NCBI GenBank assembly: GCA_004563595.2
Contig: CP042461.1
Span: 1,140,001-1,172,000, forward strand
Length of the DNA stretch: 32,000 bases
Reading direction: 5' to 3'
Source: Candidatus Saccharimonadota bacterium
GTDB lineage: Bacteria > Patescibacteriota > Gracilibacteria > BD1-5 > UBA6164
Part shown: positions 1 to 16,759 of the stretch, in pieces
Position numbering within the stretch: position 1 is the first letter of the stretch
Layout: each line of letters begins with the position of its first letter
Made by a program: the position numbers and the translations under genes
The notes under the pieces: generated by a model
What the model saw: only the letters and a program-made list of their open reading frames with translations
Databases searched by the model: none
What the model was told of the DNA's origin: nothing

Positions 1-613
1 CAATGTAACTTATAACTTTTGTTCATTCGCCTTCGGTAAAATACAATTTAGTGCCACTATCTAATAGTCATCTTAAAACATTTAAAGTTTTGTTTTTATC
101 TACTCTATTCGAAGAAGAGTTTATTTCTCTATGTAAAATGAGTTTAGATTCTATATTTTTCCTTTTTAATAAATGTAATTTTGCAGGAATATCGTCAGTC
201 AAAATATCCTCATTTAACCTTACAGATATTCAAAGTTTTATGGAAAAAAAAGGTTGAAAAATATCTATAAATTCTTTCACATCTGCATCGAAAATACCGT
301 TTATATTTTTTATTTTTGTATATACCAATAGCTCATCTTTTCGCTTTAAAATCTTAAGTTTCATCAAAGTATAAATATATTTTTTAATGAAAGCTATGTT
401 CGTTACAAAGTCTCAACACTGATTTAATGAAAGTGAATTATATGTAAGGTTATTTTTTTTTGCAAAATAAGAAAATTTCACCAAAAATTTGAGGTCTATT
501 TTGCTTAATATTTCCTCGTTTCTGTTTGAGCTTATACAACTATAACATCATCTCGAACAATTATAATTATTAGGTATCGGATTCAAAACGAATCAATCAA
601 TATTTATTTTCAT
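1..613 (-). CDS. Radical SAM protein, N-terminal ~204 codons (3' end lies beyond window start)
   Basis: ATG at 613-611. Table-25 translation MKINIDGFVLNPIPNNYNCSRGCYSCISSN... carries a canonical CX3CX2C radical-SAM cluster motif. The frame stays open to nt 1 only if about six in-frame TGA are sense codons. Confidence 0.6.
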
Positions 614-621
614 ATGTATGA

Positions 622-1491
622 TTATTGATAACTATACTTCCCTTTAATTATACATTTATAACAATTATGTTCAAATGTTTTTTCTTCATTATTCACGCTA
701 TTAAGATATGATTTAAAGCTATTAAAATCAAATATTCTTTTCTCATTATCAAAAAATATATTTGATATTTTTAAGTCTGCCAAATAACACCTCGGAATAT
801 GTGGTCTAATATCTCAATTTATAGATATTTCTAGGTCATAATATCAATCAAAGTCTTCAAAAATAATATCATTATTTTTGACTAAGAATGAGTTATGATA
901 TTTGCAAAGTACATCTTCACTTGTTACAATTTCGTTATCATTATCAATCTGTAGTGCCTCAGAAATACTTAATTTCAATTGTTTATACCTTGTTAATAAT
1001 CGAAAATTTTTACTTTCTATTAACTCTATTTTTTTCTTATAATATATTTGAAATGAAATATTATCAATATAATCCTCCAAAAAAAATTCTAATAGCCTTA
1101 CCAATGATTTAAAATTATAAGTATTCAGGTTACTAATTGAAGTAGAAACATAAACTTGTATATTATATTTTTGTAATAAATATGCTAATATTTTATAAGT
1201 TCAAGGTTTATAGATATTTATATCTGAAATTTGAATTGCAATTCATCATTTTGGATCGAATTGATGTATATACAACATCAGCTCATCTATATCGCCGTAC
1301 AGTAATGGATCAACTCAAAAACAAAATATCTCACAGTCATTATTAAAGACTTGAAAAGTAGTTGCAATATTTTTCTTTAATTCAGACATGTCATAATACG
1401 TCTGAGAGGTATAATTATCACTACATCAAGTACATCAAGTATTACAACCTTTTCAAAGTCTGAAAAGGAGCCTTTTTGCTCCATATATCAT
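622..1491 (-). CDS. Radical-SAM-like protein with degenerate cluster motif (289 aa)
   Basis: ATG 1491-1489 lies 3 nt after the TAA of the upstream rSAM gene. MIYGAKRLLFRLGKGCNTGCTGSDNY... gives CX3CX2S where CX3CX2C is expected. CFGVDPLL sits at the GGE-like position. Track ORF 844..1104 is an internal piece. The apparent TGA stop at 844-846 reads through to TAA 622-624 (C-terminus ...HNCYKCIIKGKYSYQ). Confidence 0.5.
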
Positions 1492-1494
1492 ATC

Positions 1495-2391
1495 TTATAT
1501 ATTTATTAAATCACTCTGCCCATATGCAGAAATATACTCGTCAAATATTCCATAACAATCATCTTTAAAATCACACTTTCCACATTCTGGTAAATATGAT
1601 CTTCTTCCATAATCAGTATTATAGAGCTTATTCTCATATACCTCAGTTATATAATTTATCTTTTCAGTCTTCAGGTCAGCCCTTTTTTCTAAATCTCATA
1701 AAAATAAACATAGAGGGAATCAATCCCAGTATATTTTAATACCTTTTCCGTCAAACATTTCTATTGCTGATTTTATATTAAGAGAGGCTTCTTTCGGTGA
1801 ACAGAATAATGCATCATTATTTCAAGCACCAGAGGGTTCTAAAAGAGAAAACTTAATACTTAAGTTTTCATACGAAGTCTTTAAAAGACCATTCAAAGTG
1901 TCCTCTATGGAAGATAAATTATCAGAAATAACCACATAATTTAAAAATAATGAATCAAAACTTCTTTTTTTCAAAGAACCTATGATCTTTATGACTCATT
2001 CATAACTTCCTTTACATCATACTATGTCATCATGTATCGTTCAATATCCATGAATTGATAAATATATATTTTTAATTCCTAAATCAAATAACTTATCTAA
2101 AAACCTATCACTAGAAATAGTAGACCCATTTGTAACAATTCAAAAATCAAGTCATTGTTTCTTGATAAAATCTATGACACTAAAAAAATGTGATTCTAAT
2201 GTAGACTCTCCTCAACTAAGTAAAATGATTTTCACTCACTTCTTTTTTAAAAGTAAAATTTTAAAAAAGAGAGCCTTGATATTTATTTCTTTTATATTTT
2301 TTTTATATTCAGCATGACAAAAAGAACATGTATAGTTACATTTGTATCATATCTTTAATAATGCTTTTTCTGTGATTAATCAATCAGACAT
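1495..2391 (-). CDS. Radical SAM maturase, HxsC-like (298 aa)
   Basis: ATG 2391, TAA 1495-1497, 897 nt in frame under TGA=Gly. MSDGLITEKALLKIGYKCNYTCSFCHAE (CX3CX2C), LLSGGESTL, IVTNGS, and C-terminal ECGKCDFKDDCYG (CX2CX5C, SPASM/twitch-like). It lies just downstream of the HXS-repeat precursor. Confidence 0.7.
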
Positions 2392-3272
2392 AATTTACTT
2401 GTTAATTCAGTTTTTGCTAAGTCCCCAATCAAATACCTGATATAAAATGCATCTACATCATATTTTCTCTCATTTGTTTTAAATTTTTCCAATATTTTTT
2501 CCTTATTTCAAGCTGCTAGATCTGATTTAAAGGTATTACATTTTTTCTTTTTCTCTATTTTTTCAGTCTCTTCACAAAATATTGCGTCAGATAGTCATTG
2601 TAAATTTAAAGTGGGAGCTTGATGTAACCATAAAATGTCTCAAAATATAGCTTTTTTTATAACAAAATCTATATTCATTCATTGCTCCAAGAAATTTATG
2701 ATTTTTTTCTCACTGTTATAAAATTTCATATAATCCATTTCATCTACCTTTACATTCAGAAATGGTGATTTTGTATAGCTTGAGTATAATAAAGAAGAAG
2801 TATCACTTAAGTATGATCAGATATTATCAAGAGAGTCTAAAAACTTCTTACATTCTTGTTTTGAGGCATATCATTCTTCATTTAAATTATAAATAGAGTA
2901 AATAATTGCAGATACATCATCAAAGTTATTCGTATTTAATTTTTCAAGATCATTCACCAATATTTTTTCAACCTTTTCTACATCTTTTCAATAGAAGTTA
3001 TTGCTTTCAAATCATTTTTCTTTAATAAACCTTGTTATATCCTTTAGATATAAGAAAAGGGGGGCTTCTGCATTTTTATATTTTTTACTTGTTTCTAACA
3101 GATATTTTATAAGTACTTCCTTCTTGAAAGTATAATCTGCTACGGTAATTTTATTGAATTTTTGAATAGAATCATAATTCGTATCATTTTGATCAAAACG
3201 GTCTTCTTCATCAATTTCTTTTACCAAAATTTCATCAGCTGTACTTTCAATTAAGACTTTATCATTATTCAT
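2376..3272 (-). CDS. Hypothetical protein of the Hxs cluster (298 aa)
   Basis: Extends track ORF 3012..3272 through about 10 in-frame TGA to TAA 2376-2378 (897 nt). It overlaps the start of the next rSAM gene by 16 nt (ATGTCTGATTGATTAA). I recognised no family. Confidence 0.5.
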
Positions 3273-3370
3273 CAGTCATCCATTGTGTCATAAAAATACT
3301 CATGATACAATTCAAACGATAAATATTATACATACAATTACATATTTCATTTTTTCAAAGTTAATTTTTA

Positions 3371-3742
3371 TTACCAACTACAATGTGAGCCATGAGAACC
3401 GTGCGACCCATGAGAACCGTGTGATCCATGAGAACCATGACCAGAAATAGCATTACCAGAAGTTGCATTAGAAGTAATATTATTACTATAATGGCCATTT
3501 ACAATACCACTTGCATGATTTACAGACTGATTTATGTCACATTGAAAGTTATTATATGAGGGATATCCTCATTGTCATGCCCAACTTGCATGAGCTGCTG
3601 CCACCTCATCTACTCCACTCAACAACATTGCCCCTGCTGCCAAACCTAAAGCATCTTTTTTCGTAATTTTTCCACTCTCATCAGTAAGAAACCCCTTCAA
3701 TTTCTTTTTTATTTTTGGAAATAGCTTCTTTTTTCAAGACAT
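3371..3742 (-). CDS. hxsA: His-Xaa-Ser repeat precursor protein (HxsA-like, 123 aa)
   Basis: ATG 3742, TAA 3371-3373. MSGKKKLFPKIKKKLKGFLTDESGKITKKDALGLAAGAMLLSGVDEVAAAHASWAGQGGYPSYNNFQCDINQSVNHASGIVNGHYSNNITSNATSGNAISGHGSHGSHGSHGSHGSHGSHCSW. It has a basic N-terminus, a hydrophobic segment and ten H-x-S triplets. It is flanked by radical SAM genes. Confidence 0.8.
3383..3442 (-). repeat. Tandem 9-bp (18-bp super-unit) coding repeat specifying (Gly-Ser-His)n
   Basis: Plus strand reads atgtgagcc atgagaacc gtgcgaccc atgagaacc gtgtgatcc atgagaacc atgacc. The reverse complement encodes GHGSHGSHGSHGSHGSHGSH. Confidence 0.85.
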
Positions 3743-3765
3743 ATTTTAGTATTTATATGTTAAAA

Positions 3766-5214
3766 TTAGTTCTGTATCCAAGAGAGAAGTATCTCTTTTG
3801 CCTCTTTATCTCTTAATTTTTCAAAGATATAATCTAATATTGCAATTTGTATCTTTACTTTTTCATCCTGTACTAATGGAGTATAGAGATTTCACGTCGT
3901 AGTAAAGTTATGAATGATATCAACTCCAAGATATGGTTTATATACATGGTCATTGTATCCAGGTAATCAATCTAGGCAACTCGATTGAATTGCTACCTTT
4001 GTAACTTCTGAATTCATCATATCATTATATGTTTGTTTTGCATTATCTCAGACCTCTGTCATAAGAAAGTCATCTATTCACATTCTTCCAAGCATTCTTG
4101 ATTCATCTGATGCATAGATTTTCCCATCATAATTGTAAGCAACTCCTCATACAGCTATCCCTGAGGGGCTTCTAATATCCATAAAAGCAGGGTCCTTTGC
4201 ATTAAATATCTTCATAAGATACACTGATGTGATAGATTCCGTAAAGAACGTTCCTTTCTTATTTAATTCTATTATATAATCGAGTGATTTTTTATAAAAA
4301 TCTATCCATTCTTCAGATTCATATGCAAGAGTTTTCATATCTGATGCTGCAAATCCATATGGATTCAGCCATCTCAGGAAAATTCCATCAAGACCTAATT
4401 CTAGATATGTATCAATAATTTCTTTATATTTAGGAAGAGTTTCTTTTGTAACAGTGAGTAAAGCACCTATTTTTCACATATTACGTTTTTGTTTCTCCTC
4501 AGATACTCTTTTCATCCAATAGCTTACTTTTTCAAAACTATCTCAATTATATCCTGCCCTATTTGAGTTATGAATCACTTTATTCCCATCTAAACTCGTA
4601 CAGATATCAACTCAATGATCTAACAACCGAGTAAGCTTCTCTTCTGTCATAAGTGTTAGATTTGATACTAATGAGAAATTAAGTCATTTTTTAAGATGAC
4701 CTGCTTTTATAGTAGCATAATCTACTATATGTTGTACCACTTCATAGTTCACTAAAGACTCTCCTCCCTGAAACTCTATAGTTAAACTTGGTGAATTTGT
4801 ATAAAAAATAGTATCAACCACACGAGTTGCTGTTTCTATATCCATATCATATTCTTTTGCTGTCATCGGAGCAACGGCTGCATGACAATATTTACATTTA
4901 TGATTACATCTGAGTGTAGTAATAATCATATGAAGTGTTGGTCAAACACCTACAAAATGATTTTTTAAAGCAATGCTTCCTGCCATTTTGTCTTGATAAT
5001 CCTGATCTTTGATAAATCCATTTTTACTTAACGCTTCATACTTTAAAGTATTTTCTATATCTCATGTGATAAAAGTATGAAATTCTTTCGGAGTTAAAAA
5101 CTCGTATTTTCAGGCATCGTTGGTAATTAAATATGAATTTTCATCAAATTTTTTAAATCTAAAATATCATATTTTATCAGTATGTGCATTCTTAATATCT
5201 TGTAAATTTAACAT
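3766..5214 (-). CDS. hxsB: His-Xaa-Ser system radical SAM maturase (HxsB-like, 482 aa)
   Basis: ATG 5214, TAA 3766-3768 (1449 nt). It joins track ORFs 4684..4929 and 4147..4338 in one frame. TLRCNHKCKYCHA (CX3CX2C), EFQGGESL, SLVSNLT, and a long C-terminal auxiliary domain. It ends 23 nt upstream of hxsA. Confidence 0.8.
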
Positions 5215-5217
5215 TAT

Positions 5218-5412
5218 TTATCCATTAATCAGTCAAATATTATAATTCATAAATTCATTGAAAATTTCCTCTATTTCATTCTCTGTTGATCAAGTTATTG
5301 TAAGGGTATTATTTTCTAATTTAATTTTTGAAACCTCTTTAAAATCTTCTATAGATTCTAAAATTTTTGAAGCATCATATATCTCGAAGTCGAGATTGAA
5401 ATCTTTTTTCAT
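5218..5412 (-). CDS. Small acidic protein (64 aa), possibly a truncated HxsD-like paralog
   Basis: ATG 5412, TAA 5218-5220, 3 nt before the hxsB ATG. MKKDFNLDFEIYDASKILESIEDFKEVSKIKLENNTLTITGSTENEIEEIFNEFMNYNIGLING. Confidence 0.45.
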
Positions 5413-5423
5413 ATATTTATAAA

Positions 5424-5993
5424 CTATTTTTTAAAATTATCTTTGGCTTTTTTAATAGCATCTGGATTTATTGTAATCATTGGTTTTGTTTTTTCTGATC
5501 ATGTTTCTTCTTCGATTTCTTTCAGTATTTTTTCAATCTCAGCATCGTCAATCTTCAAGTCTGGATCATTTTCTATCTCTTTCAAAATTTCATCTATATC
5601 TTTATCAAAACCTATTTGATTTTGTTCTAGATTTTTTTCAGCTTCATCTGTATTAAATGATACAAAGTTTAATGTATCAAGTGGTCAATTAATAGCTTTT
5701 TTTACAATTGTCTCTCTTATCTCTTTGTTATCTTTTTCTAACTTGTCTCTTAAATATACAGATAATAACTCATCAGAAAAACTTCAAACAAGGGTTTCAG
5801 AATTAATTTTAGTAGAATCTTTTGCTGTAAATTGTAAAATTATATTATTTTCCCTATCATGTTTAAAGAAAAAGTATCATTTATCTAAAAACATATAAGC
5901 CGCTTTTAAAATGATATCTTTTGAATAAATTTTTGTATCAATTAGAAGTTCTAATTGATCATTTTTTATCTCTTTTTTTAAAAATTGTTCCAT
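5424..5993 (-). CDS. hxsD: HxsD-like protein (189 aa)
   Basis: ATG 5993, TAG 5424-5426 (570 nt). MEQFLKKEIKNDQLELLIDTKIYSKDIILKAAYMFLDKGYFFF...SFSDELLSVYLRDKLEKDNKEIRE resembles the LLNDYxLRE signature of HxsD as I recall it. It is the first gene of the cluster. Confidence 0.5.
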
Positions 5994-6039
5994 TTAATTA
6001 GACAAATTAATTACTAAAAAATTTTACTGAATTATACGC

Positions 6040-6080
6040 AAAAAAAAAGAAGCTCAAAAACTTTTTTGAACTTCTTTTTT
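6040..6080 (-). terminator. Intrinsic (bidirectional-looking) terminator after atpC
   Basis: Stem gaagctcaaaaa (6049-6060) pairs with tttttgaacttc (6063-6074), giving one G-U pair on the minus-strand RNA. It is flanked by A9 and T6 runs, and lies immediately downstream of the atpC stop. Confidence 0.6.
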
Positions 6081-6083
6081 CGT

Positions 6084-6551: not shown

Positions 6552-6647
6552 CTAACTCCCTCTGTCCTTCGGACATCTCCCTCCATGAGGGAGAAAAAAT
6601 CAGTTCCCCCTCATGGAGGGGGATGCCTGAAAGGCAGGGGGAGTTTA
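6552..6647. repeat. GC-rich nested palindromic element between atpD and atpC
   Basis: Outer stem aactccctctg (6554-6564) pairs with cagggggagtt (6635-6645). Inner hairpins: gtcc-ttcg-ggac, ctccctc-cat-gagggag, tccccctc-atg-gaggggga, gcc-tgaaa-ggc. The left arm is approximately the reverse complement of the right arm. Confidence 0.7.
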
Positions 6648-6659
6648 TCTTAATTATTC

Positions 6660-8060
<1,401 letters not shown>

Positions 8061-8091: not shown

Positions 8092-8496
8092 TTAGTTTAT
8101 TTCATCCATTGCTACATTACTCAATCTATCAGCTTCTTTATTATCCTCTCTTTTTACCCAGTTATATTGAACAGTTATCTTTGCTTCTGATACAAGTTTA
8201 ATAATATCTGCGTGTATTGTTCTTAATTCATCTTTCTTTATTTTCCATTCTCACTTCAGCTGACAAATAACGAGTTTTGAATCCATATAGAGTTCTATGT
8301 GCTGAGATCAAAGTTCAATAGCTCTTTTCACTCAATAGTAAGCTCATAAGTACTCTGCTTCATTATTAGTCTTAATTCATAAACTTTTATACCTTTGCTC
8401 AACTGTTCATCAATTTTCATCCATAATGTGAACTCAGAGTCATGAATTTCATGGATTTCATCGAGACCCTCAATCTGTATAGACTATTAATTTCAT
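8092..8496 (-). CDS. rnhA: Ribonuclease HI-like protein (134 aa)
   Basis: MKLIVYTDGGSRGNPGNSGLGVHIMDENGGTVEQRYKSLGIKTNNEAEYLGAYYGVKRAIELG...NKEADRLSNVAMDEIN contains the DGG..GNPG / NNEAEY / EADRL(A) RNase H motifs. There are more than 10 TGA-Gly codons, so it is invisible in the standard-code track. Confidence 0.8.
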
Positions 8497-8501
8497 AAAA
8501 A

Positions 8502-8879
8502 TTACTTTATTTCTTTATCTATATAAATTTTCATTTCATCATCTTGAGCTTCATCTTTTTTCTCAATCTCAACTTTTTTTATTTTTTTTTCTTCTTTCTT
8601 ATTTATTACAGTTTTGTCTTTGGGAATATTTTTACTTGTATCTGTTTTACAGCTAAAATAAAAATATTTTCTTAACAACACTGTAATAAGCGCTATCAGA
8701 ATAATAACTAAAACTGCAAGTTTCATATGTACAGGATCTGAACTTCATGGAACAGCCTTTCATAATGAATTAAGTACTAATCCATATAAAAAATTTCATA
8801 GTATGATTCAAATTAATGAATATATTCCAAAAAATAATATATTTAAGAGCCCTTTTATAGCGATTGGTATATTTTTCAT
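8502..8879 (-). CDS. Small membrane protein (125 aa; alternative start 8726)
   Basis: Track ORF 8502..8726 extends upstream through TGA codons to ATG 8879. MKNIPIAIKGLLNILFFGIYSLIGIILGNFLYGLVLNSLGKAVPGSSDPVHMKLAVLVIILIALITVLLRKYF..., followed by a Lys/Glu-rich tail. Two or three predicted TM helices. Confidence 0.5.
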
Positions 8880-8945
8880 AATAATTATATTAAAAATAAA
8901 TCTACCTTATTTTAGCCTTTTTCTAACAATTGTAAAGAAGAAATC

Positions 8946-9854
8946 CTATACGTCTTTCATAGACTCTACTCATGCAGTTATCTCAGAAACTTCTCTGGTA
9001 ATAATTGCTTGCCTTGCTTTATTATATTGCAAAGTTAACTTATCTGCTATCTTTTTTGCACTATCTTTAGCATTTTTCATCGCAATCATACGAGATGAGT
9101 GCTCCGAAGCTTTTGCCTCTAATAATATATCAAAGAAAATCAAATCAAGTATCATCGGAATCATTTCATTTGCAAGCTTCTCAGGAGTAGGTTCCAAATC
9201 ATAACTATATATATTTAATTCTCCTAATTCCTTTTCTATATCATACTCATCTCATAAAATACTTGTAAGATAAGCTTTTATATCTTTTGCATCAATTGGA
9301 AGAGAAAGTTTTGCAACAGGAACTTGTTTAATGGTGTTAATATAGTGATTATAAAAAACAACTACTTTATTATACTTACCTGATTGAAACTCCTCTCTTA
9401 AGAGTTGAGATATTTCTTTTGTAAAAATAGGATCAATATTATCTGAAAAATCTACAGAAAAATCAGCAATCAGTTTATTCCCAGTTCTCGCAACAAAATT
9501 TGATGCTTTTTTTCAAACTGAAATAAATTCTAACTCTTCTCCTGTTTCTTTGATGTATGAACTTACTTTTTTCATAACATTTATATTATAACCTCAACAT
9601 AATCATTTATTTGAAGTAATAACAACAGCAAGAGTTTTATCTCATTTTCCTTCTTTAAAGAGTGGAAAATCACCAAGATGCTCCTCTACTCTTAAAAATA
9701 TTTTCAACATTTCAAATACAAAATCTCTCTTTTGCAAAGCAAGTTCTCAAGCTTTTTTCATCTTTACTGTTGAAATAAGCTCCATTGCTTTTGTGATTTT
9801 TCCTGTATTCTTTATCGAACCTATTTTACGTTTTATTTCTTTAGCATTAGCCAT
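8946..9854 (-). CDS. atpG: F-type ATP synthase subunit gamma (302 aa)
   Basis: [45 protein letters not shown]... The C-terminus ...[16 protein letters not shown] reads through the apparent TGA stop at 8970 to TAG 8946-8948. Confidence 0.9.
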
Positions 9855-12325: not shown

Positions 12326-13216
12326 CTATCCTAAAACTTTAAATGCAATAATCAGACCATATATTGCAACTACTTCAATTAATGCAACAAATAGTACCAT
12401 AAATGCCATAATTTTTCATTTTGACTCAGGTGATCTATTAATCGAATCCATAGCACCTTTTACAAGTAATCATTCTCAGATACCTGCCCCAAGACCTGTA
12501 AGACCAATTGCAAGCCCAGCTCCAATTGATGCAAAAGCTGATAAACCTTCAATAGAAAGAATTTGAAATGCTACTATAAGTGCATAGATAGCAGCTGACT
12601 CTACAAGCGCAACTCAAAGTATAGAAACAGTTAAGAAAAAGCTAATCATTCTTGGATTTTGACCCATAACTTTTAATGCTTTTTCTGATAAATATCATCT
12701 TCAAATTGCAACCCCTACACCGGCAAGACCGATAGCAAGACCAGCTCATACATGAACAATATTTTCTGTACCTTCACCTATAATTTTAAATGCGATAATC
12801 AAACCATATATTGCAGTAACCTCTACAAGAGCAACAAACAATACCATAAAGGTCATAATTTTTCATTTAATTGAAGGGTTTCTATTCATAGCTGAAAGCG
12901 CTCATGCTATCAACATACCTTCTCACCAACCGGCACCTAGACCAGTTAAACCAATTGCAAGACCAGCAGCAATAGAAGAGAATAAACCAATTCCTTCAGC
13001 TCCAAGAAGTTGAAATGCAACTACGAGTCCATATATAACAGCTGATTCTACAAGTGCTATACCAAGAATAGTAACTGTAAGGTAAAATGTAGCATCTGAA
13101 GGAGTTTTTCAAATAACTTCCATAGATCTTTTTGCTAATATTCATTGACCGATAGCTACTCAGATTCATGCCAAACCAACAGCAAGACCAGGTCCTATAT
13201 AATTTACGAAATCCAT
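12326..13216 (-). CDS. atpE: F-type ATP synthase subunit c, four c-hairpins fused in one 296-aa polypeptide
   Basis: ATG 13216 to TAG 12326-12328, 891 nt with no TAA/TAG and 14 in-frame TGA. There are four consecutive units of GxGxGxG helix, polar loop, and a helix with Glu: ...IALVESAVIYGL..., ...VALVEVTAIYGL..., ...VALVESAAIYAL..., ...VALIEVVAIYGL... Sits between atpB and atpF. Confidence 0.85.
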
Positions 13217-13265
13217 TTTTTCAAAAGATTAAAGAATAATAAAATTAAATTGTTGTAATATATTT

Positions 13266-14075
13266 TTAATGCACCTTCGCTACTTTAATAAAGATAGCGA
13301 TCAACAATGGGAATACCAATGCTTGTATAAATGCAACTAACATTTCTTGTAAGTAGAGTATGATTGGTCCAAGGACTGGAAAATCGAAACCTATAAGACT
13401 TACAGAAGCGCTTGATAAAGCTCATATTAACATCGCAAGAAGTATCCCTCATGATGTAACATTTCAGAATAACCTAAATGAAAGTGAGATTATCTTAGCA
13501 GCATGACCAACTATTTCTAATAAACCTAAGAATATTGAAATGATAATATCAAAAGCTTTTACCAAAGCATATACAGGTAAATCAATATACTTGTTCAATT
13601 TTCACTTTTCATATGGGATATAATCTTTTCAGAAAATTGGGACATATTCATATAATGTTTTCCAAAATCCTAAGAACATGAACTGTTCATATATAACTAT
13701 GACTACTCAAACAACTGCCATGGCTACATTAAAGTTTATATCTGCTGTAGGTATCTTTATATAATGTTCCATTCCATGACCAAATACAGGAAGAAGAAAT
13801 TCTAAAAATAACCCTAGTAAGTTTGAAAGTAATATAATGAAGAATAAACTTGTTATATAAACCTTTGTCCACCTTTTTTCTTCTTTTCCTAAGATATCTT
13901 CAAAGAATTCAAACACTTTTTCGAAAAACATTTCAAAAAAGACAACAAAACTGGCTTTTCTATAGTTTTTATACAAAAAAGCAAGAACTCAAAAAAGCAG
14001 AAGTTCCACTCACAACCCTACTATTACTCAAGGATGTAAGAATACTGATAAAAATTCCGGTAATATATTTTCCAT
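13266..14075 (-). CDS. atpB: F-type ATP synthase subunit a (269 aa)
   Basis: MENILPEFLSVFLHPGVIVGLGVELLLFGVLAFLYKNYRK... extends track ORF 13707..13976. The C-terminus ...LVFPLLIAIFIKVAKVH is typical of subunit a. First gene of the operon. Confidence 0.85.
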
Positions 14076-14243
14076 ATGTTTTTTTATATATATCTGATTA
14101 AAACGCTAGGAGTATATAAAAAAGAGAAAAAAAAGCAAGAATTTTTTTTGAAAATGCTGAAGTTTCATTATAGTCTATATATTGATAGATTCTCCAAAAA
14201 AAATAAATACTTTGTCTCTACATTTTAAACCCCCTATATTAAC

Positions 14244-15815
14244 ATGATAAATAAATACAAAAACACCTCTGCCTTTTCACTTGCAGAACTTATTCTTGTA
14301 ACTATTATTCTCGTAATTCTTTGAACTATAGCATTTATTTCATTAAGAGAATATACAAAAAATGCAAGAGACTCAGTAAGAGAAACAGATATAAAAAATA
14401 TATCAACTCAGCTTAACCTCTTTAAATCAATGAACTGATTTTATCCTGAACCTTCAAGTGGGTATGATATCACATACGCATGAACCAATGTATGGAGCCA
14501 ATGAACCATAGGGGATAGTGTCATATTCAACCTACAATCGCTGAATAAAAAATCGGTAGACCCATTTACAAACTCAGAGTATACATATTCAAGGCTCACA
14601 TCAAGAGATAGTTTTCAAATTGCTTCTGTATTAGAGTCATGATCAAATCAAGGATCTCAAATAGAGTGAAAGAAAACAGCTACAGCGTATATAACATGAG
14701 ATTACAAATGTATTATGACAAAAGTAAACTCAGGAGGTACTACATATATATTAGCCGTACCCAGTCTCATTAGCTGAAGTTCTGAGTGATCTGACATCGC
14801 ATCAGCATTTAACAATTTAATTATAGACGGATGAGAAAAACTCCCTAACAGCTATGCAGATTCCATATTTGACATACAAGCAGATGGAAGCTCATCATTT
14901 GTACAAACAAGTGATTATGTTGTATTTAGCTGAAGTATATATGATTTCCAAAATGAAGATCAACAAATTTTTCTTATAAATCAACTTCAAAAGGCATATA
15001 GCTGAACCAGTATAGAAAATAATTTTCAAATTAATGCTCTTTCTGATTACGATACAATACTCAACACTGAGGGAACAAAGTTTTTAGCACAAACTATGAT
15101 CAAAAAATGTCTCAATTCAGACATAAAAGTAACAGCAAAAAATACAACAAAATCTCCTTTGTTCTGATCTTCAATATTAAGTTATTACAGTTTTGATAAG
15201 AATTACACTGATGCTTGAATATTATGAAACAATGGTATCGTTAATAACGATGCAAGTATTGATTCCAGCAATCAAAACTCATATAGAAAATCATATGTTA
15301 CATTTTGAGGGGCAGCATGATATATCGAACTCCCTCACAATTCAGCATATGAACTTTCAGATTGAACCATTTCCTTGTGGGCTCAAGTAAATAAGCCTGA
15401 TGCTTGGTCATGATTATTCTCAAAAGATGAATTCCAAACTAATACCCCGTGACATATAACTATAGGAATTGATTATAGTAAATTTTATTATAGACTCCAA
15501 GAAATAGGAGATGAAAAAATACTTAGACCAGTAAACCCCGTAGTTTGAACAGACTGGAAGCATATGGTAGCAAGCTTTTGATGAGATGGTATGAAATTCT
15601 TCATTAATGGAAGTATAATCCAGTCAAACTGATATACATGATGAACCATCGGAAATACAAACCCCATAGCATTATGAGCAAGTATTCAAGCGAGCCAAAC
15701 GGGCCAACTATTACCCCTTGACGGATATTTTGATGGAAGCATTGATGAACTTATCATATATGATAAACAACTCAGTGACGATGAAGTATTAGAGCTCTAC
15801 AACAGCCAAAAATAA
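14244..15815 (+). CDS. Type IV pilin-like protein with C-terminal LamG (concanavalin A-like lectin) domain (523 aa)
   Basis: MINKYKNTSAFSLAELILVTIILVILGTIAFISLREYTKNARDSVRETDIKNI... is a prepilin-type N-terminal methylation/TM motif with Glu at +5. The C-terminus GILGNNGIVNNDA...VTFGGAAGYIELPH...DGTISLWAQV...DGYFDGSIDELIIYDKQLSDDEVLELYNSQK is LamG-like. 1572 nt open under TGA=Gly. Confidence 0.75.
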
Positions 15816-15868: not shown

Positions 15869-16759
15869 TTAAGATAAAATTTTGAATGCAACTATCAGTC
15901 CATAAATTGCAAGAACTTCTACAAGTGCAACAAACAGAATCATAAATGCCAAAGCAGAGTTTTTATTTGCAGGATTTCTATACATAGAGTTAATTGCTCC
16001 ACCGACAAGACAACCTTCTCATACTCATGCTCATAGAGCTGCTAATCAAATTGAAAATCATGCTCAAAGTGCTGCGGCTCCTATAATAGCTGACGTTCAA
16101 AGAATTTGAAAACCGATTACTAGCCCATATATTGCAGCCGATTCCACTAAAGCAATTCAAAGAATAGTAATAGTCAGAAAAAATGACGTTAATTCAGGAG
16201 CTCTTCACATAACAACAAGAGCCCTTTGAGCAAGTATTCCCTCCCCTATTCATACTCATAATCATGCAAGCCCAATAGCAAGACCAGCTCCAACAGCAAC
16301 ATATTCATTTATATTTTCAATACTTAAGATCTGGAATGACATAATAAGCCCATAAATGGCTGCTGATTCAACAAGGGCAAGAAAGAGAATCATAAATGTA
16401 GTAATTTTACTTTTATTATCTGGATTTAAATTTATTGCCTCAAGTGCTCATGATACCAGTATTCACTCTCATATTCATACTCCTAATCACGCTAATCATA
16501 TCCCAAGTCATACTCCTACAGCCGTCATTCATTGTAAACCTTCGGTTCACAAAATTTGAAAGGCAATAATAAGCCCATAAATGGCTACTGATTCAACTAA
16601 CGCAACTCACAGAATTGTTACCGTTAAATAAAAAGTACTCATCTTTGGGTTCTTTCCCATGATCTCCATTGCCCTAAAGGTCAATATTCCTTGCCCTATT
16701 GCAGCACCAATACATGCCAATCAAACAGCTAAACCTGCTCATAAATATGTTAAATCCAT
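15869..16759 (-). CDS. atpE: Second four-hairpin fused ATP synthase subunit c paralog (296 aa), stand-alone
   Basis: ATG 16759 to TAA 15869-15871, 891 nt with 24 in-frame TGA. MDLTYLGAGLAVGLACIGAAIGQGIL...VALVESVAIYGL...GIGEGIL...LALVESAAIYGL...GIGEGIL...IALVESAAIYGL...GVGEGCL...VALVEVLAIYGLIVAFKILS. Same length and architecture as the operon copy. Confidence 0.8.

Follow-up and report, generated by a model that had tools for sequence, protein, structure and literature searches.

An HXS-type radical-SAM gene cluster in a TGA-recoded Gracilibacteria genome

The window analysed here, a stretch of 32,000 nucleotides (nt) from contig CP042461.1 (assembly GCA_004563595.2, positions 1,140,001 to 1,172,000), carries at its left end a minus-strand gene cluster related to HXS, a system in which radical S-adenosylmethionine (rSAM) enzymes mature a peptide with His-Xaa-Ser (HxS) motifs. 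HXS (HxsD-HxsB-HxsC-HxsA, in Escherichia coli and Klebsiella) was first defined in silico by Haft and Basu in 2011 (TIGR03976-03979). Eight open reading frames (ORFs), numbered g1 to g8 in the order of the unit, fill positions 2-5993 in tight succession once only TAA and TAG are read as stops; under the standard code (table 11) every gene, atpD included, is broken into short ORFs. The TGA codons of atpD fall on invariant glycines of the protein (Walker A GGgAgVGKT, AgVGERTREg and LLgRIPSAVgYQPT, with lower-case g for TGA), and TGA therefore encodes glycine (code 25). Proteins g5, g6 and g7 have counterparts at NCBI with 100% identity, from Candidatus Gracilibacteria bacterium 28_42_T64 and a contig of 1,343,103 bp; the source genome is a streamlined one of 1.34 Mb, and all window ORFs of the cluster are intact. 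The closed genome was described by Sieber et al. in 2019 as being without CRISPR-Cas, and their text makes no mention of radical SAM genes (PMC6851277). [quoted passage not shown] This description holds: the ORFs are real, ten HxS motifs are present, and among the coordinates only the start of g5 has to be moved, from 3272 to 3350 (NCBI A9Q91_05305, 324 amino acids).

With g5 starting at 3350, the spacers across the cluster measure 3-23 nt or are replaced by a 16-nt overlap; from g4 through g8 the genes follow one another on one strand with spacers of 3-20 nt and that overlap. The unit had been proposed to begin after the atp terminator, and a terminator-like hairpin (A-run, 18-bp stem, U-run) indeed follows atpC on the minus strand at 6042..6081 and marks the upstream boundary. 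It folds at -18.6 kcal/mol (z = -4.34), and none of 200 shuffled sequences was equally stable. A TATAAT box at 6031..6036 (minus strand), a consensus match to a -10 element located 38-43 nt upstream of the hxsD start codon, is the putative promoter of the cluster. The layout, together with hairpin and box, suggests that the genes form an operon. No tRNA genes or Rfam elements were found in the window.

Hidden Markov models (HMMs) confirm that the cluster is of Hxs type, as the initial annotation had claimed, but not to the same degree for every gene: HxsD and HxsB pass their curated cut-offs, whereas the HxsA-type, HxsC and HxsD_rel models are best matches with scores below theirs. HxsD (g1; 5424-5993, minus strand, 189 amino acids) reaches 64.6 bits against TIGR03976 (cut-off 50). 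Its core comprises residues 18-102 and is followed by a conserved acidic C-terminal extension, and the family motif LLNDYxLRE is kept only in part, as LLSVYLRD. Scans with HxsB gave related loci for comparison, four from genomes and 80 from metagenomes; the metagenome set was retained out of 252 relatives in a degenerate-pattern scan. HxsD orthologs are 61-62% identical in loci L001-L003 and 45% in L006. The small acidic protein g2 (HxsD-rel; 5218-5412, minus strand, 64 amino acids) aligns end to end with the HxsD_rel model NF038315 and, at 38.8 bits, stays just below the cut-off of 41; its Nanoarchaeota counterpart passes with 64 bits, and in most related loci HxsD-rel is placed between D and B. 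The rSAM maturase HxsB (g3; 3766-5214, minus strand, 482 amino acids) scores 479 bits against TIGR03978 (cut-off 370) over positions 3-466 of 466, and 50.4 against the radical-SAM domain PF04055. Its CX3CX2C motif (C103/C107/C110) is invariant in 77 of 77 HxsB sequences. All six cysteines of the SPASM auxiliary clusters are replaced in the window protein (S351, S369, Y420, H423, L429, D432). Among the 77 sequences the full SPASM set is retained in 13, all of them from standard-code loci; 38 have three cysteines and 26, including the window HxsB, have none.

The presumed substrate of these enzymes is g4 (3371-3742, minus strand), an HxsA-type precursor of 123 amino acids. Model HxsA3 (37.7, cut-off 65) aligns with its leader and HxsA4 (33.7, cut-off 55) with its full length; HxsA2 gives 15.7 (cut-off 48), and the original HxsA model found no match at E<=1. 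The protein consists of a conserved, Lys-rich leader (residues 1 to about 30), a hydrophobic stretch that ends in AAAHA (31-52), and an HxS-rich core that ends in (HGS)6-HCSW. Its ten HxS motifs compare with 1.4 +/- 1.1 in 20,000 shuffled sequences, not one of which reached ten. Seven of the ten stand in tandem at the C-terminus, and all three histidines outside this tail are likewise in HxS context. On the DNA level the tail is encoded by a tandem repeat of period 9/18 (3390..3440, minus strand), for which Tandem Repeats Finder gives 93% matches at period 18. The predicted mature part (residues 53-123) contains nine His. Leaders of this type are conserved from Gracilibacteria through Nanoarchaeota; the Lys-rich segment probably docks the maturation proteins, the hydrophobic segment ending in AAAHA probably directs export, and the N-terminus would function as a signal.

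Behind the precursor follows g5 (2376-3350, minus strand, 324 amino acids; identical to the NCBI hypothetical protein A9Q91_05305), a single-pass membrane-anchored protein. The start at 3350 adds an N-terminal transmembrane helix, which is common to the orthologs, and the family shows four invariant cysteines and a conserved C-terminal motif, YD.D.FY.RYLIGDL. None of the NCBIfam or Pfam models matched, and a homolog search returned the g5 protein alone. An iterative HMM search over all loci found orthologs in L006 and L007 only; g5 is specific to the module of the window type, and the membrane proteins at its position in other loci have no detectable homology to it. The single-sequence AlphaFold2 model, with a mean predicted local distance difference test (pLDDT) score of 35, offers no usable fold.

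The next gene, g6 (1495-2391, minus strand, 298 amino acids), encodes an HxsC-like rSAM enzyme (PF04055 74.4). Its best NCBIfam match is HxsC (TIGR03977), with an alignment over 29-290 of 292 positions and a score, 88.5, that is far under the cut-off of 267.9. Annotated canonical HxsC and g6 have in common the CX3CX2C, GGE, NG and PxC motifs and a C-terminal C-x2-C-x5-C-x-G, the auxiliary-cluster motif. Along with its paralogs, g6 matches both HxsC and HxsC4 (67.8 for g6, cut-off 500). Assignment to a housekeeping cofactor enzyme, which would have spoken against the Hxs interpretation, was rejected: archaeal MoaA (58.9 against a cut-off of 325) and PqqE (43.6 against 381) score below HxsC, NirJ and AhbD score far under their cut-offs and under HxsC, and the synteny of the rSAM genes with the Hxs core is conserved, g6 orthologs lying in Hxs-type clusters without exception.

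More unusual is g7 (622-1491, minus strand, 289 amino acids), which misses the PF04055 cut-off by little (26.4 against 29.5). Only one other close relative was found among 5.8 billion proteins, and a profile search of 1.84 billion proteins gave a family of 23 representative clusters. Invariant in the family alignment are C16/C20/C23, which form the CX3CX2C motif (16 of 16 aligned members), as well as C196, H231, C235, C277 and C280; the invariant RPHxPxC motif is matched by no Pfam or NCBIfam model. The AlphaFold2 model based on this alignment is confident (pLDDT 90.5; predicted template modelling score, pTM, 0.88), and every one of the 43 Foldseek matches with E<=1e-3 is an rSAM enzyme, the list being headed by the peptide maturases SuiB, EpeE, anSME, CteB and SkfB (E 7e-9 to 1e-5, TM-score up to 0.61 for EpeE). 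The sequence profile of the family finds only marginal rSAM matches in the PDB (E 0.019-0.35). Like these SPASM/twitch maturases, g7 has an N-terminal CX3CX2C and a C-terminal Cys-rich domain; it differs from them in an identity of only 13-17%, the absence of an N-terminal RiPP recognition element (RRE) domain (RiPP, ribosomally synthesised and post-translationally modified peptide), and the replacement of GGE by G-x-D/N, which also applies to g8. Because of the invariant cysteines, the confident model and the structural matches, all of them to rSAM enzymes, we regard g7 as a real, if very divergent, twitch/SPASM-type rSAM protein, which founds a very small family. In several database proteins of these lineages W stands at positions that are G in the window (e.g. 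LWKGC, FFWVDP); they were called with code 4, and in the aligned family members such exchanges indicate TGA-recoded lineages. The use of code 4 in place of code 25 depresses the scores of HMMs, and surveys may overlook such families for that reason.

At the left edge of the window g8 (2-613, minus strand) is cut off, so that the N-terminal 204 amino acids of a protein of about 318 are seen. This part contains the motif CSRGCYSC, has no HMM match, and is 53% identical to the full-length ortholog in L005 (318 amino acids). In the g8 orthologs the C-terminal domain ('RPHxPxC ... CxxC') aligns to that of the g7 family (hhalign probability 85%, E 7e-6), and through this domain alone g8 is linked to g7 as a distant paralog; its assignment to the rSAM enzymes has weaker evidence than that of g7. 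Together, g7 and g8 add to the radical-SAM superfamily a branch that is new and very rare. Of the three consecutive rSAM-type genes of the initial annotation, g6 is an rSAM enzyme, below the HxsC cut-off, g7 has an rSAM fold, and g8, without HMM match, has the motif and its paralogy to g7. All four rSAM-type genes of the window possess CX3CX2C, and PF04055 is passed by g3 and g6.

The NCBIfam variant models HxsA3 (NF038309), HxsA4 (NF038313), HxsC4 (NF038332) and HxsD_rel (NF038315) deserve a separate comment. They are matched by g4, g2 and g6, in every case below cut-off, which indicates that they miss the Gracilibacteria lineage; g5, g7 and g8 match none of them. The component set they describe is that of the Nanoarchaeota relative. 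We found no publication describing these models, but their existence means that curators had already seen such Hxs variants.

Could the locus be a decaying remnant, with an HxsB deprived of its auxiliary clusters, degenerate pseudo-enzymes g7 and g8 that no longer bind SAM, and little or no chemistry left? The loss of all SPASM cysteines in HxsB, the change of GGE to G-x-D/N in g7 and g8, and their sub-threshold or absent PF04055 matches would fit such a scenario. Yet the ORFs are intact in a streamlined genome of 1.34 Mb, CX3CX2C is invariant in the 77 HxsB and 16 g7-family sequences, the g7 family has five further invariant Cys/His, and orthologs are conserved at 29-59% identity across lineages with the same gene order. 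Such conservation is the mark of purifying selection, and we consider decay very improbable.

Beyond the window the cluster can be followed in related contigs. Among about 17 relatives of g6 the context of four was inspected, and three, on long contigs, lie in the same extended, tightly spaced cluster on one strand; the fourth, L008, belongs to a cluster of another kind. L006 and a contig from the Joint Genome Institute have the order HxsD, HxsD-rel, HxsB, HxsA, g5, g6, g7, g8, g9, g10, g11, SufS, g13, TPR (tetratricopeptide repeat), in which g9 is a g7 paralog, g10 and g11 are HxsC-like, g13 is an HxsC-like rSAM protein of 423 amino acids, and SufS is a cysteine desulfurase of the SufS family. 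L005, which holds the closest relative of g7, comprises the end of g6, g7, the full-length g8 and the start of g9. L007 has the same module with a second precursor and an inserted tryptophan-halogenase-like gene. Since four further rSAM genes come next in the syntenic contigs, along with a SufS-like gene and one for a TPR protein, the window probably holds about half of a unit of some 14 genes with about eight of rSAM type. The initial annotation was right about extra rSAM paralogs and an extra protein without family match (g5), but its count of four rSAM-type genes was too low, because the window cuts the cluster.

Within the loci compared, the exact g5-g13 module together with a precursor ending in 'HCSW' is confined to the window, L006 and L007. 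In L007 it is the HCSW precursor that directly precedes g5; the second precursor, with another ending, stands elsewhere. The features at 6742-7155, 8515-9045 and 12732-14222 of that locus are the two precursors with their different C-termini and the halogenase-family gene within the rSAM module, and its HxsD/HxsB pair lies about 2.6 kb away from the module. The idea that (HGS)n tails are specific to g5-g13 proved wrong: such tails are general to the clade, and only the HCSW ending is specific.

These distributions bear on whether the genes from g5-g8 onward act on the precursor at all, or constitute a separate rSAM pathway, for a cofactor or a modified lipid or sugar, that happens to stand beside a minimal Hxs core. 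The closest relatives of the window HxsB (70-77% identical; L001-L003 and L009-L013) have no orthologs of g5-g8, and g6 remains under the HxsC cut-off. The next-closest relatives of g6 (38-41% identity) are found in L008, a TGA-recoded, rSAM-rich cluster with NifH/NifDK-like genes and no Hxs gene visible on the contig. It is one of the clusters of group VI nitrogenase paralogs with an rSAM suite, reported from Elusimicrobia and two Gracilibacteria genomes, for which Meheust et al. (2020, bioRxiv 10.1101/765248) predicted tetrapyrrole reduction, that is, a cofactor and not peptide maturation. Tandem small rSAM genes are common to both kinds of cluster, whereas the syntenic loci of the window type are without NifH/NifDK-like genes. 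Several observations nevertheless tie the module to the precursor: the genes g4-g8 are tightly packed on one strand; co-linearity is kept in five independent contigs although HxsB is only 58-59% identical; the HCSW ending is found where the module is, and L007 shows the precursor with this ending moving along with it; and if g6 is taken away, no HxsC-type partner is left to the locus. Moreover, in the TGA-recoded L051 the Hxs core (D-rel, HxsB, HxsA) is directly followed by NifH-like and NifD-like genes (2633-3799), 68% identical to those of L008 (1-2807), the cluster with the g6 relative, so that Hxs-type precursors are themselves tied to the group VI nitrogenase paralog and rSAM suite. A separate pathway is accordingly hard to favour, and we think it quite unlikely.

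The comparison reveals a large Hxs clade, not described in print before, among TGA-recoded CPR bacteria; its relatives of DPANN-like (archaeal) type use the standard code. Of 86 loci with an HxsB match, the 67 with at least 51% identity to the window HxsB have in-frame TGA codons, and the other 19 (identity of 44% or less), including a Nanoarchaeota single-cell genome, use standard stops. Nearly all loci have the D, D-rel, B, A core, the leader consensus (F/I)PK(L/F)KKKLxGFL(T/S)DE(S/G)GKI(T/S)K and an (HGS)n tail, in which the repeat number runs from 3 to more than 20. Among the precursors of L009-L088, repeat number varies over this whole range between otherwise similar loci, and the endings include HGSRW, HGQW, GGGWC, HCSW and acidic tails, which suggests slippage of the tail repeats and diversifying selection. 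The downstream cassettes are highly variable. In 25 diverse loci, 79 of 178 downstream ORFs possess CX3CX2C; the largest cluster of these ORFs is an HxsC-like small rSAM protein (63 members in 23 of the 25 loci), and HemN-like, MiaB-like and g7-like rSAM genes recur. Multiple HxsC-like paralogs per locus are thus the rule in the clade, and the expansion is not a peculiarity of this genome.

On the one hand, this variability might be expected of a conventional RiPP cluster, whose leader is cut off and whose heavily modified His/Ser/Gly-rich core diffuses away, be it as a bacteriocin, as a signal, or as a metal-binding peptide that the symbiont employs against or together with its host. Both precursors and cassettes are hypervariable, with two precursors in some of the loci; a leader-core layout is combined with tailoring rSAM enzymes; the closest folds to g7 are the RiPP maturases SuiB, EpeE, CteB and SkfB; the mature part of g4, with nine His and no basic residues, is similar to metal-binding tails; and a SufS-like gene occurs in the syntenic clusters. 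On the other hand, neither the cluster of the window type nor the 178 downstream ORFs of the 25 loci contain a recurrent ABC exporter or a leader peptidase, a lack that fits export by way of the precursor's own signal-like segment. The leader has a hydrophobic stretch that resembles a signal peptide, a protein with an N-terminal transmembrane helix follows directly after the precursor in 28 of 49 loci, and the only characterised homologous system makes an envelope effector that is retained. A released peptide is therefore an unlikely product in our view, though less so than a separate pathway.

Some Hxs loci are flanked by polytopic membrane proteins with a 'WSAGDAK' motif (L002 11012-12223, minus strand; L004 7356-8414; L012). 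They are present in Gracilibacteria and Nanoarchaeota, recall prepilin peptidases, are matched by no NCBIfam model, and may act as leader peptidases; in the window no counterpart turned up when the code-25 ORFs were searched for the simple motif GD[AV]K.

That Hxs is known only from bioinformatics, with chemistry and product undescribed, as the initial annotation had it, is outdated. Li et al. (Nat Commun 2026, PMC13128918) showed that the four-gene HXS of E. coli blocks DNA entry and thereby gives protection from 110 of 113 phages. HxsC binds HxsD, and HxsB, HxsC and HxsD mature HxsA: its N-terminus is processed and its last HxS repeat changes by +8 Da, through radical chemistry that is still unsolved in detail. 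Once mature, HxsA resides in the periplasm, where a peptidoglycan-binding domain anchors it, and it binds DNA, for which basic residues were proposed as the basis. Mutation of the auxiliary-cluster cysteines of HxsB abolished defence. In their survey 99.7% of systems belonged to Pseudomonadota and 99.6% had the order D-B-C-A (all PMC13128918).

The window locus is like this system in that HxsB and HxsD pass the curated models, a second, HxsC-like rSAM enzyme has the same C-terminal Cys motif, the substrate combines a signal-like N-terminus with C-terminal HxS repeats of which the last is distinct (HCS; SHRSS in E. coli), and the genes are united in one operon-like unit. It differs in gene order and number (D, D-rel, B, A, g5, C-like, g7, g8 onward, at least eight genes, against D-B-C-A), in its extra HxsD paralog, in at least two additional rSAM genes (about six by synteny) as well as g5, SufS and TPR, and in its host, a code-25 CPR bacterium. 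The HxsC-like protein is without the N-terminal domain of about 115 amino acids and scores 88.5 against the cut-off of 267.9; the precursor has 123 amino acids, no peptidoglycan-binding domain, and no Lys or Arg in its mature part. An auxiliary iron-sulfur (Fe-S) motif in both HxsB and HxsC, as in the canonical system, is not found, as it is present in g6 and absent from g3. The locus probably works like HXS and shares its core by descent, but it is a distinct variant and not a standard member. Canonical systems vary as well: on a Methylobacter plasmid (L089; NZ_CP091425, 3316-7286) hxsB-hxsC comes after an unannotated, HxS-rich protein of 90 amino acids with a signal-peptide-like N-terminus, a thermonuclease-family gene follows, and no hxsD is annotated.

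We therefore favour, with a probability of roughly 55%, the reading that the operon matures an exported HxS-repeat peptide by rSAM enzymes, is a divergent and enlarged relative of HXS, and most likely serves as a barrier to phage entry. In this scheme g4 would be made with a two-part N-terminus, a Lys-rich docking segment and a hydrophobic export segment ending in AAAHA. In the cytoplasm HxsB, helped by HxsD and HxsD-rel, and the HxsC-like g6 would modify the HxS core, as HxsB/C/D do in E. coli, and g7 and g8, along with three or four more rSAM enzymes outside the window, might add radical modifications to the (HGS)6-HCSW tail. The SufS-like cysteine desulfurase predicted beyond the window could supply sulfur for the many Fe-S clusters. 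The mature peptide would be exported by its own signal-like segment and act at the envelope, possibly together with the membrane-anchored g5, where, by homology with the E. coli system, it may form a barrier to phage DNA entry in a genome without CRISPR-Cas. Of these parts the maturation of an exported HxS peptide by rSAM enzymes is well supported, and the anti-phage role, carried over from E. coli, is the weakest link.

Several observations weigh against a phage barrier, or at least against a close copy of the E. coli mechanism. The defence role would follow from distant homology (HxsB is about 36% identical to annotated proteobacterial HxsB, and g6, which is devoid of the canonical N-terminal domain, about 20% identical to HxsC). 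PADLOC v2 found only generic viperin-type rSAM matches in an analysis that includes no Hxs model, and hence gives no independent defence call, and the cluster adjoins housekeeping genes, the atp operon, and no defence island. In E. coli DNA binding was attributed to basic residues, of which the mature part of g4 has none, neither Lys nor Arg; g4 has no Pfam domain and so no peptidoglycan-binding domain; and the auxiliary-cluster cysteines without which E. coli HxsB loses defence are missing from the window HxsB. As the closest HxsB relatives do without them, g5-g8 are not obligatory partners of the core, and the continuation of the cluster in the source genome is predicted from synteny with other contigs.

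A bolder version of the favoured reading would make the CPR/DPANN loci a large HXS branch of their own, missed by the published survey, with an exported (HGS)n peptide, up to eight rSAM enzymes, a new twitch-type family (g7/g8/g9), an HxsB that may work without auxiliary clusters, and a chemistry so far unseen in RiPPs, the product being a phage barrier or a molecule at the host interface. We offer this tentatively and would not bet on it in full. The clade itself falls outside the published survey. With 252 HxsB-type metagenome relatives, and most of the 80 kept loci TGA-recoded, the published view that HXS is all but restricted to Pseudomonadota is too narrow, and with this locus a defence system that had to wait until 2026 for its characterisation gains a branch across CPR/DPANN. 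Canonical HXS is the first defence shown to block the ejection of phage DNA, and the +8 Da change affects a single HxS repeat. The tandem, near-identical HGS repeats and the ladder of additional rSAM enzymes provide many equivalent modification sites and separable enzymes, which could make the chemistry easier to solve. About 1% of the DNA is apparently spent on the operon in a 1.34-Mb symbiont without CRISPR, a share that speaks for an envelope function of importance in the biology of CPR bacteria. If the reading is true, a heavily modified envelope peptide could be what chiefly keeps phages from entering these CRISPR-less organisms, or could serve them at the interface with the host.

The neighbouring atp region shows peculiarities of its own. 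Two genes of 296 amino acids in or near the atp operon (12326-13216 and 15869-16759, both minus strand) each encode a c subunit fused four-fold, with four PF00137 ATP-synt_C domains, and the two copies have diverged; between them lies a pilin-like protein with a Laminin_G_3 domain (14244-15815, plus strand). The gap between atpG and atpD (8092-8879, minus strand) holds an RNase H/RVT_3-like gene (134 amino acids) and a small membrane protein (125 amino acids). Between atpD and atpC a G+C-rich, terminator-like hairpin (6605-6623, minus strand; 8-bp stem with six GC pairs, followed by a T-run) falls inside what should be a single operon.

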